In this document: in pieces, positions 5,486 to 57,555 of the stretch
How positions within the stretch are numbered: position 1 is the stretch's first letter
Layout: every line of letters starts with the position of its first letter
Source: Eubacteriales bacterium
GTDB taxonomy: Bacteria > Bacillota > Clostridia > Oscillospirales > CAG-382
Direction: 5' to 3'
DNA length: 64,000 nucleotides
Assembly (NCBI GenBank): GCA_028705495.1
Contig: JAQWDK010000004.1
Location: 17,868 to 81,867 of the forward strand
Translations under genes and position numbers: made by a program
The notes under the pieces: generated by a model
Told to the model about the DNA's origin: nothing
The model's database searches: none
What the model saw: only the letters and a program-made list of their open reading frames with translations

Positions 5486-5489
5486 AAAA

Positions 5490-6075
5490 TGATAAGAACT
5501 ATTAATGGCGCAGTATCCTAGTTGGACCGTCGTTCCCGAAAGCGGGCCTAAAAATCCGCGTAAGGGCAAAACGATGAAGCTCCTTGTGCTTGCTTTAGAC
5601 GCCCAGTTTAGGGTGGGTGCTGGGAGAATGGACTGCGGGCGCCCCGTAATGGCATACGGGACACGACCCGTTTTCCGTAGAGGCTTTTTTCTGTGCTGGC
5701 ACGGTTTTTTTCGTAGCTGGTACGGTTAAAAGATTAAACCTATCACGCGGTACTTTTTGTTGCTGTGGATAGAGTAGCCTGACTTGAGTGGTTTTGGCGG
5801 ATGGGTGTTCACACCGGTGTAGTAAGTCGACGACGATGCTGGTTATCGCTCCCTGAAACCTCTGCTGCAAAAGAGTCTAAGGAACGGAAGCGGTCTATTG
5901 AGGAAATCTCCTAGGCTGAGATATCAGGCACAGGATGGATTGCAGTGTGAACTAAAAGGTAATCAAGTCCCGGCTCCGGTGACGGACCGGCTGTTGGTTT
6001 AAAGGGAAACCACTTTATCGGCGACGAAAAGTACTGACTGGGGAAAGCCTACTTGACCGGATGTCACAAAGTTTA
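5490..6075 (+). ncRNA. ole: OLE (ornate, large, extremophilic) RNA candidate; the ends are approximate
   Basis: A 667-nt gap (5454-6120) in an otherwise tightly packed operon. It holds only short overlapping ORFs on both strands with implausible products. It is locally GC-rich with many short helices (e.g. CCGGCTCCG-gtga-CGGACCGG at about 5970-5990) and has its own promoter. The flanking order nusB-xseA-xseB-ispA-[gap]-small TM protein-dxs-tlyA-nadK-argR-recN is the published OLE/oapA neighbourhood. No covariance model was run. Confidence 0.75.
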
Positions 6076-6120
6076 CGTCTTGTGCCGCCATTCATATTTT
6101 TATATAAAGGAAAAGAAAAA

Positions 6121-52259: not shown

Positions 52260-53171
52260 GTGAATAATCTAACCGATCAGCAATATGTGGTAAAATCACT
52301 GGAACTGCATCTATTTTTCGGACGCATCATGAAGGAGCATTCGTTTTTTTTAGAAGCAGGATTCACTCCAAAGAACGCTTCTTTCGCTGTTGCAGCTGAT
52401 AAATATAAGGTTGAGTTCGAAAAGCTTCTCCGAAATGCAATTCGACTTAGCAATGGAATCGTGAGTTATGAAGCTCTACACTCTGGAGAGTTTATCACCG
52501 ATTACACGCTGGGTTCTGAGCAAAAGACGCAGAACTTTACTGGAATCGCAATTGACACAAATCTGACGACACAAGAAGCCGCGCTTCACAGTGGAGTTAA
52601 TCCAAATGTTAATTCAAGTCTTGTGCGTGCTGTCCGTGAATTGAATACCGGAGCATTACCGCTGATAAACAGCTTGATTGACTTTAAAACTCAAATACTT
52701 AACGGTATGTTATCATGTAATATGTTTACAATGAATTACCCGCTTCTTGTTGACCACATCAGGAGAGAAGCAAGGATGTACCGCGACCATCTGACGGCGC
52801 TTGAGCAAGGTCAGGACATGGACCACAACACAAGAGATATGGAACTGTTTTGGGATCAGATTATGCTGGAGCATGCACTCTTTATACGAGGCTTACTTGA
52901 CCCGTCCGAAGGTGAGCTAATTAATACAGCGAATGATTTTGCGGCTGAATACAGCGCTCTCATCGAACAAGCACTATCCGCCAACGACGCGATGCTTGAG
53001 ACTGTGACAACTGAAACGCTCGAGGGAACAAAATCATATCGTGATTTTAAAACAGCAGCAACAAAAGGTATCGCCGAATGCAAAATCCGCTCTATAATTC
53101 TACCGCTTTTAGCAGACCACACCCTGCGTGAAACAAATCACTATATAAGACTTCTTAATCAAACAAAATAA
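52260..53171 (+). CDS. DUF2935-type (two-repeat helical, hemerythrin-like) protein
   Basis: GTG 52260 lies 7 nt after a GGAGGT located inside the upstream gene's last codons. Two repeats: GRIMKEHSFFLEAGF and FWDQIMLEHALFIRGLLDPSE. Confidence 0.6.
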   Translation: MNNLTDQQYVVKSLELHLFFGRIMKEHSFFLEAGFTPKNASFAVAADKYKVEFEKLLRNAIRLSNGIVSYEALHSGEFITDYTLGSEQKTQNFTGIAIDTNLTTQEAALHSGVNPNVNSSLVRAVRELNTGALPLINSLIDFKTQILNGMLSCNMFTMNYPLLVDHIRREARMYRDHLTALEQGQDMDHNTRDMELFWDQIMLEHALFIRGLLDPSEGELINTANDFAAEYSALIEQALSANDAMLETVTTETLEGTKSYRDFKTAATKGIAECKIRSIILPLLADHTLRETNHYIRLLNQTK

Positions 53172-53197
53172 TACTTGAATATTGTTGCATAACAAAT

Positions 53198-53228
53198 ACG
53201 CCGAACCCATATTAAAAGGGCTCGGCGT
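53198..53228. terminator. Bidirectional terminator at the core/island boundary
   Basis: ACGCCGAACCC-n9-GGGCTCGGCGT. Confidence 0.6.
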
Positions 53229-53239
53229 AAATTGTTCGA

Positions 53240-53815
53240 TTAATCATGAATTGTAATAAAATTTTTCAATGCGGTTGTAATGTCGTCTTGTGCAACCAAC
53301 AAAATTTCACAGTTCTCAAGCTCTTGAATACTGAACTTATCAATTTCATCGTTGCATACTAAAATAGCCGCTCTGTTAACGATTTCAGCGTTCATGTACT
53401 CGTTGAATTCTTGAATATCTCTATTGACCGCCTCTTCGACTCTTATATAACCTTCATCTTCAATTACTTCGGCTGTCCAAGCATTTATTTCTTTATCGTA
53501 AAACATTAAGTAATCTAATATAAGAAAATTTTTATAAAAGAAATAACCATAACCGTTTAAGCGAACTTCCTTGCGTCTGATATATTCGATTGGTAAGTCA
53601 GCCTTCATGATCGAGTCATACATACGAATATAGTATGATGAGGTTGACATCCATGTGTATTTTTCTTTTGTATCTTTGTAATACTTTGTAATGCGGTATC
53701 TGATGAAATCAATCGGCGTATATAGGAAAACTCCAATTATTATCAAAATTAAAAATGGTATAAAAAGAACTACTAAAATAACTTTACCGAATTTAACTAA
53801 CTTTTCTTTAATCAA
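53240..53815 (-). CDS. Orphan single-pass membrane protein (191 aa)
   Basis: TTG 53815 lies 5 nt after AAAGGCGGTGA and gives MIKEKLVKFGKVILVVLFIPFLILIIIGVFLY. Tyr/Glu-rich soluble C-terminal domain. Low GC. Confidence 0.5.
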   Translation of the reverse strand: MIKEKLVKFGKVILVVLFIPFLILIIIGVFLYTPIDFIRYRITKYYKDTKEKYTWMSTSSYYIRMYDSIMKADLPIEYIRRKEVRLNGYGYFFYKNFLILDYLMFYDKEINAWTAEVIEDEGYIRVEEAVNRDIQEFNEYMNAEIVNRAAILVCNDEIDKFSIQELENCEILLVAQDDITTALKNFITIHD

Positions 53816-53867
53816 TATCACCGCCTTTGAAAGAATTATAAATTGTAAGATAAAAAGAAGCAATACA

Positions 53868-54437
53868 CTATTCTGTTATTTCTTCAATTATATAAAGCAA
53901 ATTGCTATATTCATAATACTTAAACCTATAATACGAACCTTTCTTTAGATTTACATCTAATTGAAAAACATAATATGTGTTCGTATTGTTTATAAATTTT
54001 ACCTTAGGTCTGGTTCCATCAATCTCCGGAATATAAATTTCAACGATTCCAGTAATATAAACATCTTCTGCATAATAATCTTTAAACGCACTTTCTACTC
54101 TCTGATATGAACCAATTGCCATCATACAAAAGAGAAGCAATACAACCAATCTCTGTAGTATTGTTTTTGTTAAGTTTATGCTTGGTTTTTTTATTATTGC
54201 TAATATAAAATCAATTATAAAACTGATTACAATAGCAACCGCAAAAGATAGCAAAATCATAAAAAATCTTATATCGCCACAAAGAACTCTCGTATCCAAG
54301 TCGCTCGAATACGAGGGCAAAATCATTACAGCTAAAAATATTATCAGAGGAATAGTGATTATTAATACTCCTAACACAACTTCTTTTTTGGTAACTTGCT
54401 TTTTAGGAGGATAATAAGAAATATCATAATCGTTCAT
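53868..54437 (-). CDS. Orphan 3-TM membrane protein (189 aa)
   Basis: Three hydrophobic helices, then a beta-rich Tyr-rich C-terminal domain. A 4-nt gap to the next gene. Low GC. Confidence 0.5.
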   Translation of the reverse strand: MNDYDISYYPPKKQVTKKEVVLGVLIITIPLIIFLAVMILPSYSSDLDTRVLCGDIRFFMILLSFAVAIVISFIIDFILAIIKKPSINLTKTILQRLVVLLLFCMMAIGSYQRVESAFKDYYAEDVYITGIVEIYIPEIDGTRPKVKFINNTNTYYVFQLDVNLKKGSYYRFKYYEYSNLLYIIEEITE

Positions 54438-54825
54438 ATCATCAATTCCTTTTTTCTTGATTTATTGACTTAATTTTAGCATGCATTTATTTTCATGTCA
54501 ACGATTTATTAAAATATGCTTTGCGTAGCAAAGCTTTTGTTCTTTCTTGTTTTTTATTTTACGGGGACAAGTTAAATATCCGGCTTTCATTGGTGGTGAA
54601 GTAATCCACTAACATACGCAATCTCAATGATATATGGCTTAAGCTGCATGCTATAACATCCGTTCCTTCATATTCGAAGCGTATATCATATGTTCGGAGG
54701 GGATAGCTATTATAAGCTTTTTTGTGGTAAATCAGTAAATATTTCGTAAGTCCCATTTAACGGACACATAAAATAATATAATATAAACAGAGAGTAAATA
54801 TGGCGCTTGCGAAAGGGGTATATCG

Positions 54826-55350
54826 ATGTTAGATGGATTTAATGGTGGAGGATTTGACCCGAACGGCTCCATTGAAAGCAATGTGAATAATCATTATGTA
54901 TTTAGAGAAACAAGCAGCGGAAGCGGTGGTGGAGGTGGTGGTAAAAAAGGCGGATCAGGTAGCAGCGGAAATGGATGCTCCTATATTGTCTACGCTATCA
55001 TAGCTGCATATTTTATCCTAAGCAACCCCGAAGCAATAATTATGTTGCTTCTTCTATCAGCGACCATCGCGTTGGGTGTTTGGATTGTGCATAAGATATG
55101 GACTGATCTAAGCGGAAAACGATTAAACATTTATTTTAGAGGAGCTGCCAAGGTTGTCGCCGGGTATCTTTCTGCATTTGGATTTTTCGCAATTCTGATT
55201 GAAATAGATGATTTTTTAGACTGGAAAATTTTCTGGTCCATATCAGCGGATTGGGTTATAATCTTCAGTATTGTTTTATTAATAGTATTTGTTTATTTGA
55301 TCAAGCGGGGATTTGATAATAGAATTAATATAGCCGACAATAATGAGTAA
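54826..55350 (+). CDS. Orphan membrane protein with Gly-rich N-terminus (174 aa)
   Basis: RBS aaagggg. SSGSGGGGGGKKGGSGSSGNG, then ~4 TM helices. Confidence 0.5.
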   Translation: MLDGFNGGGFDPNGSIESNVNNHYVFRETSSGSGGGGGGKKGGSGSSGNGCSYIVYAIIAAYFILSNPEAIIMLLLLSATIALGVWIVHKIWTDLSGKRLNIYFRGAAKVVAGYLSAFGFFAILIEIDDFLDWKIFWSISADWVIIFSIVLLIVFVYLIKRGFDNRINIADNNE

Positions 55351-55385
55351 ACAAAATGCCACTACAGTGCATGGAAAAACAAAAC

Positions 55386-55408
55386 GCACCTTGCAAAAAG
55401 CAAAGTGC
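55386..55408. terminator. Hairpin between convergent orphan genes
   Basis: GCACCTTGC-aaaaa-GCAAAGTGC. Confidence 0.45.
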
Positions 55409-55502
55409 GAAATATTGCATTGTGTACGAGATGTAAAGAGAAGTTTGTCATTGACAAAAATCGATAGTCTTTATGTAAAGAGGTAATGAAAAAGGATGTA
55501 TG

Positions 55503-55760
55503 CTATTTGTTTTTATTTTGAATGATTTTAACACACCAGAAAAGCCATAAGACCATAAACCCAAATGAAATAATCCAACAAATAATTGCGCCTAAAATCC
55601 CCGTAGCATTTAATGCTGAAATACCGGCTAAGATTCCTATTGTAATTAATAGTCCACATAAAATTGACGTTATCATTAATCTAACTATTATTGGGACTTT
55701 TTTACTTTTTGTTGCACCTAAAAGCCCTTCAATAAATATTTCAAATATTATTCCCATCAA
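55503..55760 (-). CDS. Orphan small 3-TM membrane protein (85 aa)
   Basis: Almost entirely hydrophobic (ILCGLLITIGILAGISALNATGILGAIICWIISFGFMVLWLFW). Confidence 0.45.
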   Translation of the reverse strand: MMGIIFEIFIEGLLGATKSKKVPIIVRLMITSILCGLLITIGILAGISALNATGILGAIICWIISFGFMVLWLFWCVKIIQNKNK

Positions 55761-55977
55761 TAAATCTCTCCATGTATGTAGATAATTTATTTAAATAAGT
55801 ACTATCTTTTCTATCATTGCCTTTGCTTGAATAATATCACAAATACCTATATATTTCCATTATAATATTAAAAGACTATTGACATAAAGATGCCTGCAGA
55901 ATTTTTGATTGAAGACATGAACCTATCTCTAATTACAAAAATCTAATTGTTCTTTTTCGCCGTGTTGATTGAAGCGA

Positions 55978-56199
55978 TTAGCATAACTCTGCCTCTTTAA
56001 GTGCGATTTGAAGCTTCGCGATAAAATCGGCTTTGCTGTGAGAGTATTGTGCCTCGCGGATGTTCGCACCGATTGATGTGCCGCTTCTGCCGATCTGGTT
56101 AGAAGTGATTGATTCACGCTTTTCTTTGAGTTGTTTGACGAAGTTGATTACTGAAACCGCAAAATTCATTGATTGAGTACGAAGTTTTGAATTAGACAT
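55978..56199 (-). pseudogene. Four-helix-bundle protein (23S rRNA IVS-protein family), copy 1, truncated/deleted
   Basis: MSNSKLRTQSMNFAVSVINFVKQLKEKRESITSNQIGRSGTSIGANIREAQYSHSKADFIAKLQIALKEAELC*. The family core (QIGRS..SI.ANI.E ... ADF...L.I.LKE) is present. It stops ~50 codons early. Beyond the stop the same frame reads ...RKRTIRFL*, matching the C-terminus of copy 2 (STIRFLL), which implies an internal deletion. Confidence 0.65.
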
Positions 56200-56223
56200 T
56201 GAGCGCACCTCACTTCCTAACAT

Positions 56224-56252
56224 ATTATACCATACACTTATGAGGTTTTCAA
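56224..56252 (-). promoter_or_regulatory. Sigma-A promoter of four-helix-bundle copy 1
   Basis: Minus strand: TTGAAA, 17-nt spacer, TGgTATAAT. The RBS GAGGTG follows. Confidence 0.65.
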
Positions 56253-56416
56253 TAGTGAAGTTGCGGCTTTGCCGCAGTGAAGTATTGTGGCTGCGCCGCA
56301 AAGTGAGGCTAAGTGTGCCACCCACGCCCGCAGGCACTTCACGAGGCGTAGCCTCGCTTCATGCGCGCAGCGCACTTCTCGTGCCAAAGGCACATCGCGT
56401 TACGATGTGCCTTTGC
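56253..56416. repeat. Mini-hairpin array 1 (7 short GC-rich hairpins with GTGAAG / CTTCAC linkers)
   Basis: TGCGGC-ttt-GCCGCA (56262-76), TTGTGGC-tgc-GCCGCAA (56285-301), GTGCC-n13-GGCAC (56315-37), CGAGGC-gta-GCCTCG (56342-56), TGCGC-gca-GCGCA (56362-74), GTGCC-aaa-GGCAC (56381-93), AAAGGCACATCG-cgtta-CGATGTGCCTTT (56386-414). Linkers are GTGAAGT on the left and CTTCA(C/T) on the right. Confidence 0.8.
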
Positions 56417-56422
56417 TGTGTT

Positions 56423-56467
56423 GTGACTACAATTTAGATGAAAAGCCGTGACACTACGATTTAGATG
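56423..56467. repeat. Tandem direct repeat GTGAC(AC)TAC(A/G)ATTTAGATG x2
   Basis: GTGACTACAATTTAGATG (56423-40), aaaagcc, GTGACACTACGATTTAGATG (56448-67). Confidence 0.7.
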
Positions 56468-56566
56468 CACGCTTTTTCTCGCGAGGGTACACGAACCCCT
56501 TGGCGATGATGGGTGTTGCGCTTGACCGTTGACCGACGGGGTATAAAGCCATGCTTGTAACGAAGT

Positions 56567-56806
56567 CTATGTATTATATACTGGCTTATACACCCAATGT
56601 GTATCTAAGTCTATTACATAATCCACCTTAACATGAGGATCAAAAGGAATCACTTCATAACCATAGCGCATACCAAAAGCGGAGGGAAACTCCTTTTCGC
56701 TAACAAGATTAAATATTTCTTTAGTTTTTTCTCGAAGTTCTGATTCTCCAATTCCTTTTCCATGCAGTAGTATATCGCCGTATACGGATTCTATGTAAAA
56801 TATCAC
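56567..56806 (-). CDS. 79-aa orphan protein coupled to four-helix-bundle copy 2
   Basis: The tracked ORF (56567-56887) overlaps the 3' end of copy 2 in another frame. GTG 56806 follows GGAAGGA and overlaps the copy-2 stop as GTGA. Product: MIFYIESVYGDILLHGKGIGESELREK... Confidence 0.45.
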   Translation of the reverse strand: MIFYIESVYGDILLHGKGIGESELREKTKEIFNLVSEKEFPSAFGMRYGYEVIPFDPHVKVDYVIDLDTHWVYKPVYNT

Positions 56807-57177
56807 TTTTTTCCTTCCGTCGCCGTATTGAGATTGTTTTTCGCTGTCGTAATAGACTTCACAAGTAAAAATCTTATTGTCGAGCACTTGCGGTCAAGTG
56901 TTTTATACCTCATTTCATCAATATACTCACTTTTCCAAAGCATTTCAAGCCATTTGCTCGTTTCGTTGGTCTCTTTCAATGAAATTTCAAGCTTTGCAAT
57001 AAAATCGGCGCGACCGTGAGCGTATTTACTTTCAGCAATATTTGCACAAATGCTTGTCGCGCTTCTGCCGATCTGATTTGATATTACATTTTCGTGATTT
57101 GCACGGAGTTCCTTTGTTAATTGTAAAACCTAAACAGATAATTCCATTGAAAGATCACCGAGCTTATCTTCTCTCAC
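56803..57177 (-). pseudogene. Four-helix-bundle protein (23S rRNA IVS-protein family), copy 2, full length but with an in-frame TAG
   Basis: GTG 57177 follows AAAGGTGGTGG. VREDKLGDLSMELSV*VLQLTKELRANHENVISNQIGRSATSICANIAESKYAHGRADFIAKLEISLKETNETSKWLEMLWKSEYIDEMRYKTLDRKCSTIRFLLVKSITTAKNN.... The TAG at 57130-57132 aligns with Ser in copy 1. Confidence 0.65.
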
Positions 57178-57201
57178 GATGCCACCACCTTTCATAGAAT
57201 A

Positions 57202-57230
57202 ATTATATCATAATTTCAACTAAAAACCAA
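57202..57230 (-). promoter_or_regulatory. Sigma-A promoter of four-helix-bundle copy 2
   Basis: Minus strand: TTGGTT, 17-nt spacer, TGaTATAAT. Confidence 0.55.
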
Positions 57231-57446
57231 CTGCATTTCAGCGCACAAACTAACGGCTTCATTCCGTTTGCGCGAAGCGCAACATCATTGGGCGAAAACC
57301 CACATCATTTGCCGAAGGCAACTTCATTTACGGCAAAGCCGTAACATCGTTCATTTGTGCCGCGCGGGGCGGCAATGAAGTTGAGCTAACGCTCAAATGA
57401 TGTTGCGCGCGTTGCACGCAAATGATGTTGTGCCTACGGACACAAA
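57231..57446. repeat. Mini-hairpin array 2 (~9 short GC-rich TTG..CAA hairpins with CATCATT / AATGATG linkers)
   Basis: TTGCGC-gaa-GCGCAA (57268-82), TGGG-cgaaaa-CCCA (57289-302), TTGCC-gaa-GGCAA (57309-21), TTACGGC-aaa-GCCGTAA (57328-44), TTGtGCCGC-gcggg-GCGGCAA (57355-75), TTGAGC-taac-GCTCAA (57381-96), TTGCG-n9-CGCAA (57403-21), TTGTGCC-tac-GGaCACAA (57428-45). Linker polarity flips near 57365. Confidence 0.8.
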
Positions 57447-57479
57447 TGAAAAATCCGAAAGCGAGAGCTTTCGGATTTT
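57447..57479 (-). terminator. Terminator of tRNA-Gln
   Basis: Minus strand: AAAAATCCGAAAGC-tctc-GCTTTCGGATTTTT. Confidence 0.85.
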
Positions 57480-57555
57480 TGGCAGGGGTGGATGGACTCG
57501 AACCATCGGAATGCAAGAGTCAAAGTCTTGTGCCTTACCACTTGGCTACACCCCT
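57480..57555 (-). tRNA. tRNA-Gln (anticodon UUG)
   Basis: Minus strand: AGGGGTG TA GCCAAGTGGTAAGGC A CAAGA-CTTTGAC-TCTTG ... GATGG-TTCGAGT-CCATC CACCCCT G CCA. Confidence 0.9.

Follow-up and report, generated by a model that had tools for sequence, protein, structure and literature searches.

Gut-1-type hairpin arrays are physically coupled to Avd-like four-helix-bundle genes, preferentially downstream of tRNA genes

Why would a chain of short hairpins, a promoter and a small four-helix-bundle gene occur twice in succession behind a single tRNA gene? This arrangement lies on the minus strand of a 64,000-nt stretch of contig JAQWDK010000004.1 from a Eubacteriales bacterium (assembly GCA_028705495.1; hereafter the window), where the order is tRNA-Gln, terminator, array 2, promoter, four-helix-bundle (4HB) gene copy 2, a 79-aa gene, a spacer, array 1, promoter, and 4HB gene copy 1 (Table 1). 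An earlier note on this DNA had described the same layout, and all of its features are present at the given places on the minus strand. Judged by comparison with related loci, the locus combines two copies of one conserved module, each of independent origin and now decayed. This module consists of a terminator, an array of ~180–200 nt of the Gut-1 type, usually a sigma-70 promoter, and an Avd-like 4HB gene (PF05635). Array and gene are physically coupled across many lineages, the polarity of the array is fixed on one strand (tRNA, forward (F) half, reverse-complement (R) half, gene), and the module is found preferentially downstream of tRNA genes. Going by the surveys described below, the array-plus-gene pairing is widespread in gut Clostridia.

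Both 4HB copies belong to the four-helix-bundle family of proteins encoded in 23S rRNA intervening sequences, as had been proposed. In profile searches, copy 2 matches PF05635 with 87.4 bits (E = 8.7e-25; cut-off 33.8) and TIGR02436 with 93.7 bits (E = 7e-27; cut-off 24), and copy 1 matches the two families with 57.2 bits (E = 2.2e-15) and 63.9 bits, respectively, both above the cut-offs. Comparison with homologues indicates that copy 2 likely starts at the GTG at 57177, behind the ribosome-binding site GAAAGGTGG, rather than at the ATG at 57195. The damage reported for both copies is real: an in-frame TAG interrupts copy 2, and copy 1, broken by a ~33-codon internal deletion plus a frameshift, stops after 73 codons, the first 71 of which align to the family. 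Neither copy retains an intact open reading frame (ORF) of ~115–120 aa. Both would be pseudogenes, unless errors in the metagenome-assembled genome (MAG) account for the lesions.

The two copies share the core QIGRS..SI.ANI.E..Y.H..ADFIAKL.I.LKE, in line with the earlier description of them as paralogues. The C-terminal TIRFL given there as a second shared feature does not hold for copy 1, where it lies past the stop and past the C-terminal remnant, at a non-homologous position. Copies 1 and 2 are ~51% identical in protein sequence and 70% identical in DNA across 111 nt, and therefore represent two distinct lineages side by side, not a recent duplication. The nearest relatives of copy 1 among the loci listed (L-numbers denote loci from the surveys) are L127, L130, L131, and L165, with 76–86% identity; that of copy 2 is L126, with 61% identity. 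The tandem arrangement does not recur: the 80 listed loci contain no tandem 4HB duplication, only two frameshifted genes.

The RNAs of both window arrays fold with low minimum free energy (z-score −4.6 for array 2, with 0 of 200 shuffles folding as well, and −5.0 for array 1). The 5' part of array 2 contains ~4 units with CAUCAUU/CUUCAUU linkers and GNA/GNNA-type loops, and its 3' part contains ~5 units with complementary AAUGAUG/AAUGAAG linkers and UUC-type loops. This R-to-F order is the less common arrangement; a repeat search confirms the complementary linker pairs (four). Array 1 has the canonical F-to-R order, with a long hairpin, units with GAGAAGUG/GUGAAGUG linkers, a central hairpin, and units with complementary CACUU/ACUUCAC linkers.

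Both arrays have the layout of Gut-1 (RF01706), namely at least three short hairpins with a conserved UGAA-containing linker between them, all on one strand. The Gut-1 model matches array 1 at 56402–56331 with 34.1 bits (E = 1.5e-4) and array 2 at 57352–57277 with 22.0 bits, below the gathering threshold of 50 bits in either case, and the window arrays differ from Gut-1 in their linkers (GAAGUG, AUGAUG). On the strength of layout and match, the window arrays are sub-threshold relatives of Gut-1, a kinship absent from the earlier note. Matches above the threshold (54–78 bits) are found directly upstream of 4HB genes in L001, L074, L115, L018, L112, L030, and L054, sharing the strand of the 4HB gene and, where present, of the upstream tRNA.

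Gut-1 was described in 2010 (Weinberg et al.) as three hairpins with GUGAAAU between them, found in human-gut metagenomes only, with no function or gene context reported (PMC2864571). The flanks of the Gut-1 seed sequences contain a tRNA and a terminator, hairpins with GUGAUAU linkers, and then hairpins with complementary AUAUCAC linkers; seed BAAZ01025322.1 runs on into the sequence that precedes the 4HB start in the human-gut contigs L140 and L142. Gut-1 and the present arrays have in common the short GC-rich hairpins, the GUGAAAU-like linker, the use of one strand, and the occurrence in gut Clostridia. Whereas the Rfam model comprises three hairpins (77 nt), the element found here is a polar inverted array of ~180 nt with a closing long-range helix, which indicates that the model covers less than half of the real element. 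We found no paper in the literature that links Gut-1 to the PF05635 family or describes the array-plus-gene pairing. As separate observations, the Gut-1 seeds include matches every 240 nt on contig BAAZ01000130.1, and an Akkermansia MAG (L011, 2312–3306) contains three above-threshold Gut-1 matches ~440–500 nt apart with a repeated small ORF between them and a 4HB gene 3 kb away.

The coupling of array and gene was surveyed from both sides. In the DNA-first survey, species-representative genomes were scanned for three GTGAWAT motifs 8–20 nt apart, a pattern that favours GTGAWAT linkers. At least 120 loci were obtained, mostly from MAGs of gut Clostridia, and ~90 are true hairpin arrays; in this and the following survey the loci are phylogenetically related, the counts are not independent events, and all data are MAGs and metagenomes. 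Arrays with two orientations almost always consist of F units followed by R units, with a unit spacing of 16–25 nt and a centre of ~35 nt. Seventeen listed arrays lie 32–130 nt past a tRNA gene, always on its 3' side, and all eight canonical arrays that adjoin a tRNA have their F half turned towards it. When the ORFs that start beside arrays were clustered, the 4HB family was the sole recurrent one among the matches listed. It stands beside an array in eight listed loci (L018, L030, L033, L054, L073, L074, L112, and L115), with its start ~40–55 nt past the last matched linker, in addition to L001 and the window. A control scan of viral contigs gave 120 pattern matches, mostly constant-period tandem repeats, with one canonical array and no 4HB gene. 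Apart from these arrays, intergenic tandem octamers (GGTGAAAT / AGTGAAAT, 5–9 copies) were seen in L007, L013, L081, L103, L124, and L125 (Bacteroidales and others), with no 4HB gene within ~700 nt.

In the protein-first survey, an alignment of ten 4HB sequences was used as query and gave at least 80 metagenome loci whose proteins are 36–61% identical to window copy 2. An upstream 6-mer (at least 2–3 copies) accompanied by its reverse complement (at least 2 copies) is present in 42 of 75 listed 4HB loci (56%), compared with 0 of 375 shuffles, and five or more short hairpins occur in the 170 nt upstream in 21 of 75 listed loci, compared with 3 of 207 shuffles and 2 of 49 downstream controls. 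By eye, the upstream layout is that of the window: the terminator is followed by a CAAYGAAAU start and by hairpins with F linkers, and past the centre come hairpins with R linkers and a promoter or ribosome-binding site. A same-strand tRNA ends 150–340 nt upstream of the 4HB gene in 22 of 67 listed loci, and none of them has an opposite-strand tRNA there. The recurrent association with hairpin arrays, as postulated earlier, is strong from either starting point, and the recurrence of tRNA adjacency is borne out by both counts. In the public assembly of L326, a called 175-aa 'gene' (2425–2952) is an artefact that spans a promoter, two tRNA genes, a terminator, and a hairpin array.

The linkers differ between lineages (GTGAAAT/ATTTCAC, ATGAAAT/ATTTCAT, GTGATAT/ATATCAC, GTGAAG/CTTCAC, CGATAT/ATATCG, and ATGAAG/CTTCAT), but the F-half and R-half linkers are always complementary. 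The linker ATTTCACA was also considered as a DnaA box, a reading dropped because the base past the heptamer is not conserved. The relatives of copy 1 (L127, L130, L131, and L165) use GTGAAG/CTTCAC, the linker class of array 1, and the relative of copy 2 (L126) uses ATGAAG/CTTCAT, which is near the array 2 linkers. Linker type thus follows the 4HB clade, both window copies included, and gene and array have therefore been inherited together. A minority of loci (L156, L157, L168, L180, L194, and L201) carry tandem heptad blocks without hairpins. GTGAAAT-type tandem heptads without hairpins are also found beside PF05635 genes in L056 (686–734; Chlorobi) and L041 (972–1100 and ~1460–1530; Oscillospiraceae), flanking the gene on both sides in L041, which suggests that the link between heptamer and 4HB gene may reach beyond the hairpin arrays of Clostridia.

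Compensatory changes preserve the hairpins as well as a long-range helix. Twenty canonical arrays were aligned, and the R-half hairpins were evaluated together with the helix that connects the 5' start of the array (e.g. GAAAUAAAUCC) to its centre (GGAUUUAUUUC). Paired cells amount to 96.7%, compared with 63% in shuffles and 38–51% in slid controls; the covariation score is 0.877 vs 0.249, reached by 0 of 500 shuffles; and both sides have changed in 24 of 26 pairs. RNAalifold adds pairing between the first F linker and the last R linker and between the last F linker and the first R linker. The loops are mirrored: UUC/UGC loops of the F half correspond to GAA/GNRA loops of the R half.

The strand asymmetry of the arrays points to the gene-sense strand as the one that folds. 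Of 56 arrays, 43 have a sense-strand RNA that folds more stably than its antisense counterpart (Wilcoxon p = 5e-6). Read on the strand that carries the tRNA and the 4HB gene, the non-Watson-Crick pairs of the hairpins comprise 13 G.U vs 5 A.C, and the long-range helix contains 13 G.U cells vs 3 non-standard ones, one of which is C.A. An antisense preference of F units, obtained when wobble pairs were counted by unit orientation in a pool, was reversed on re-analysis by strand using the known polarity.

These features bear on whether the array is a host element beside which the 4HB gene has settled without specific interaction. It would then resemble repetitive extragenic palindromes (REPs) and bacterial interspersed mosaic elements (BIMEs) and serve as a backup terminator, as an insulator, or by shielding 3' ends from exonucleases. 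Consistent with this alternative, most arrays have no 4HB gene and sit past the terminators of tRNA, rRNA, and protein genes, in some cases with convergent genes on either side; the terminator hairpin accompanies the array; and the inverted multi-hairpin arrangement is as in BIMEs. However, the 4HB gene is the sole recurrent neighbour among the matches listed, 56% of the listed 4HB relatives have the upstream inverted array at a nearly fixed position relative to promoter or ribosome-binding site, and the linker changes with the 4HB clade, which is unexpected for a shared host function. We consider this explanation unlikely. The comparison extends to REP/BIME elements with their REP-associated tyrosine transposase (RAYT), which are likewise dispersed intergenic palindromic units, inverted, mostly without a gene, and in a minority of cases beside one characteristic small gene. 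In contrast, the gene here does not encode a Y1 transposase, the stems differ within an array and are kept by compensation, and the polarity to upstream genes is fixed. No Y1 (IS200/IS605-like) transposase was found beside the arrays listed or among the window ORFs scanned, and readings of the arrays as integron or REP-RAYT elements were rejected for lack of an integrase or transposase.

Of 31 array-bearing loci, 22 have a promoter between array and gene, and its −10 is often extended. In the window, promoter 1 begins two bases past the last array 1 linker, and the promoters of L001, L036, L123a, L153, and L174 have the same position. Promoter 2 was not listed by the promoter scan because its −35 matches at 3 of 6 positions only; the TATGATATAAT motif recurs at its position in related loci. 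In at least five lineages (L150, L158, L165, L175, and L127), the array runs right up to the ribosome-binding site and no promoter could fit between the two, so that the array must be a leader in the 4HB transcript there, a further pointer to the gene-sense strand as the one that folds. L165 also has no U-run after the tRNA.

The position of the promoter raises a second alternative, in which the heptamers would be iteron-like operators in duplex DNA, in direct as well as inverted orientation, bound by the 4HB protein or another factor that represses the adjacent promoter, and the hairpins would be incidental. In most promoter-bearing loci, the −35 touches or overlaps the last linker, and the motif co-varies with the protein clade; the six loci with hairpin-less tandem heptads, as well as the GTGAAAT heptad runs beside PF05635 genes on Chlorobi and Oscillospiraceae contigs, would also fit operators. 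Such operators leave the compensated stems, the long-range helix, and the strand-specific G.U bias and stability unexplained, however, and some arrays have no promoter at all, while others occur alone. The operator explanation is thus improbable in our view. In ribosomal-protein autoregulatory leaders and omega-type heptad operators, the gene of a small protein that binds nucleic acids is directly preceded by a structured or iterated element. The ATATCAC linker holds the omega heptad core ATCAC, which may be a coincidence. The 4HB fold is unrelated to that of omega and other ribbon-helix-helix repressors, and the 4HB protein is a candidate for binding only.

The reading that we tentatively prefer, and that we regard as quite possible, is that the array works as sense-strand RNA and is the cognate ligand of the 4HB oligomer, either in autoregulation or in a ribonucleoprotein, with solo arrays as relic or non-autonomous copies. 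The module would lodge directly past a tRNA gene or another strongly terminated gene. The array would act as a single strand in gene-sense orientation, most likely as RNA, arising either when transcription of the upstream unit reads through or as the 5' leader of the 4HB transcript. Binding of this nucleic acid by the 4HB oligomer could then give feedback control or a ribonucleoprotein, and arrays without a gene could be copies that have lost it or never carried it. An analogy is offered by Avd, whose partners in diversity-generating retroelements (DGRs) include structured RNA and GC-rich hairpins.

Several observations weigh against this RNA-ligand reading. About 90% of the arrays listed by the DNA pattern have no 4HB gene alongside. 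Where a promoter separates array and gene (22 of 31) and a terminator precedes them, the 4HB mRNA need not include the array. The order is reversed (R-to-F) in window array 2 and L200. F and R linkers could be complementary because a single protein reads duplex DNA both ways, and the loop types behave like an inverted duplication. The strand asymmetry would fit single-stranded DNA too, since genes co-oriented with replication have their sense strand as the lagging-strand template.

The module or its parts are dispersed. Array families recur, terminator hairpin included (gcacttgc...gcaagtgc), at non-orthologous sites, namely after tRNA-Tyr (L001 and L326), after tRNA-Ala (L123a), and after a protein gene (L123b), and arrays or genes were found by more than 10 different tRNA species. 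L123a and L036 keep a 4HB-type promoter and ribosome-binding site (GAAAGGCGG) that drive other genes. In L123 (4272–5228), near-identical terminator-plus-array units stand either side of a 134-aa BspA-type leucine-rich-repeat gene; this gene uses the 4HB-type promoter and ribosome-binding site, so cargo has replaced the 4HB gene there. Frameshifted or truncated 4HB genes are common (twice in the window, and in L054, L165, and L182), and many 4HB-carrying contigs are short or end at the array.

Dispersal of this kind might be taken to mean that the module is a mobile or recombinogenic element targeting the 3' flank of tRNA genes, with hairpins as recognition sites in single-stranded DNA and the 4HB protein, like Avd, as accessory to a reverse transcriptase provided in trans. 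Besides the near-identical array families at non-orthologous sites and the range of tRNA species, this explanation has on its side the two unrelated modules stacked behind the window tRNA-Gln, the AT-rich unannotated stretch that follows them, the frequent breaking of contigs at the array, and the frequency of pseudogenised copies. On the other hand, no recombinase, transposase, or reverse transcriptase was found within ~8 kb of the window modules, where the domain scan covered the larger ORFs (at least 158 aa) between 48.2 and 62.5 kb, and none is recurrent beside the arrays listed. No target-site duplication or empty site was identified, and identical 4HB proteins from different samples were in the same genomic context every time. 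A mobile element is accordingly an improbable answer, on a par with the operators.

A profile built from the 4HB relatives matches PDB entries 2RLD (a B. thetaiotaomicron protein; 4e-45) and 2GSC (3e-5), each deposited with five chains, and weak matches to the bAvd-like family (PF22296) occur among 4HB members. A single PF05635/TIGR02436 member is matched by more than 7,900 clusters at E<=1e-20. PF05635 has been noted as resembling the Avd protein of DGRs (PMC10053308). The DGR target needs a GC-rich hairpin of 7–10 bp, the stem sequence being free and the GRNA loop important (PMC3240598), and the authors suggest that the loop may contact Brt, Avd, or RNA (PMC3240598). The likeness is an analogy: the protein is related, and the R-half hairpins have GC-rich stems and GNA/GNRA loops on the sense strand. 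In contrast to the DGR target, there are many hairpins instead of one, and the array is upstream of the gene. A search for template and variable repeats, limited to 55900–57500, gave short repeats only, and the DGR reading was rejected as no reverse transcriptase was found among the larger ORFs scanned around the window modules or recurrently beside the arrays listed.

The 23S rRNA intervening sequences that contain a PF05635 ORF offer another comparison. Such sequences are processed by RNase III; for the present module this is an analogy only. Both involve the same protein family, a context of stable-RNA transcription, and extensive self-complementary RNA flanking the gene, and arrays also end tRNA and rRNA operons, e.g. 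in L116. The module differs in lying outside the rRNA gene, with the complementary elements upstream of the ORF rather than bracketing it; no rRNA match is present in the window, so the module is not inside a 23S rRNA gene here. A grouping of the family with HEPN-like folds, suggested earlier with some doubt, found no support at the level of sequence: no HEPN family was matched at E<=1 in the profile search of the 4HB copies, and the conserved core RSxTSIxANIxE has no Rx4-6H motif (no His 4–6 residues past the Arg).

What, then, is the role of the 79-aa gene, which the earlier note had taken for a coupled partner of ~80 aa? The gene has 32 homologue clusters of 76–86 aa, mostly 76–79 aa, and its AlphaFold2 (AF2) model has a predicted local distance difference test score (pLDDT) of 93.9. 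A fold search of the model against PDB gave no match with E below 0.08, and the protein has no Pfam, PADLOC, or PHROG match. Homologues follow a 4HB gene only in the window and L001/L002, with a GTGA-type overlap in the window and L001, and none is present in the 80 other listed 4HB loci. Elsewhere they stand alone after metK (L003) or follow a DMP19 gene (L004/L005). In L004 (160–817) and L005, the homologue lies directly after this gene of the DMP19 family (PF14300, DNA-mimic), which hints that the 79-aa family pairs with different small helical proteins. A closely following ORF is absent in 56 of 74 listed 4HB loci, most 4HB genes being monocistronic, and where coupled genes do occur they vary (unrelated small ORFs in L115, L054, and L326, cytidine deaminase, and acetyltransferase-like proteins). 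The 79-aa gene is genuine and conserved, yet an occasional passenger or cargo outside the core module. As a side observation, ~70 nt past its stop (56500–56566) resemble L001 975–1040 (cttcgtt(t)acaa.catggc.tt...) in a by-eye comparison.

These data also bear on the idea, raised earlier, of a toxin-antitoxin or defence-like cassette made of the 4HB gene and the ~80-aa partner. The gene overlap (GTGA) in the window and L001 and the unrelated small coupled ORFs of a few other 4HB genes (L115, L054, and L326) are what such a cassette would predict. The absence of the 79-aa family from the other listed loci, the many 4HB genes with no closely following gene, and the occurrence of the family alone or after DMP19 show no conserved two-gene pairing, and neither the 4HB nor the 79-aa protein matches PADLOC, PHROG, or toxin/antitoxin families. 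This explanation is largely refuted, and we give it hardly any credence.

Gut-1 has stood in Rfam as an orphan motif since 2010, and PF05635/TIGR02436 is, outside DGRs, a very large orphan family. The physical coupling, the fixed polarity by tRNA genes, and the co-variation of motif and clade join these two orphans in a single testable hypothesis, namely binding of the array by the protein. A more far-reaching reading, which we offer as doubtful, is that Gut-1 and the 4HB gene are one system, in which a pentameric Avd-like protein recognises the polar series of small hairpins, each with its lineage-specific heptamer, and builds with it a ribonucleoprotein, self-propagating or self-regulating, that settles in the 3' flanks of tRNA and rRNA operons. 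If true, this would give PF05635 a function outside DGRs and explain the presence of its genes inside rRNA intervening sequences. The arrays may also be linked to the hairpin that DGR targets need and to the intervening sequences of rRNA.

The features of the locus are collected in Table 1. A counterpart of the terminator hairpin is part of the repeated unit in related loci.

Table 1 Features of the tRNA-Gln locus and its two array-plus-gene modules in the window
Feature	Position	Strand	Basis and remarks
tRNA-Gln promoter, sigma-70, 12/12 matches	57607-57579	-	promoter scan
tRNA-Gln (UUG)	57480..57555	-	ARAGORN; Rfam tRNA 65 bits; upstream neighbour of modules
Intrinsic terminator: A-run, 14-bp stem, T-run	57449..57480	-	repeat search and promoter/terminator scan
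Hairpin array 2, ~9 short GC-rich hairpins	57252..57448 (approx.)	-	sequence and folding
Promoter of 4HB copy 2, TTGGTT-17-TATAAT, TGn extended -10	57202..57230	-	read from sequence
4HB pseudogene copy 2	56803..57177	-	PF05635/TIGR02436; in-frame TAG 57132-57130
79-aa gene, GTG start overlapping 4HB stop (GTGA)	56567..56806	-	translationally coupled
Spacer with 15-nt direct repeat (56426-56440 and 56453-56467)	56416..56566	-	repeat search
Hairpin array 1	56255..56415 (approx.)	-	sequence and folding
Promoter of 4HB copy 1, TTGAAA-17-TATAAT, 11/12, TG-extended	56224..56252	-	promoter scan
4HB pseudogene copy 1	55978..56199	-	71 N-terminal residues, then deletion and frameshift
C-terminal remnant of copy 1, MLIASINTAKKNN followed by stop, other frame	55943..55984	-	matches family C-terminus LIASINTAK

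No further array of this kind is present elsewhere in the 64-kb window. Directly downstream of the decayed modules, the window is AT-rich from ~53200 to 55900 (26–32% GC, compared with ~38–46% around it) and looks island-like. The ORFs of this stretch (207, 189, 174, and 85 aa) match no Pfam, PADLOC, or PHROG family, apart from one faint CARF_TM-like match (E = 0.002). A match to ARRPOF RNA at 53105–53266 (minus strand) reaches 32.8 bits of the 127 required and is probably due to chance. Exact-protein look-ups of the window PRPP synthetase and the 79-aa protein gave no match. At a distance from the modules, the window contains a full-length OLE (ornate large extremophilic) RNA, the mark of an anaerobic Firmicute source, at 5489–6107 on the plus strand (442 bits, E = 1e-126).

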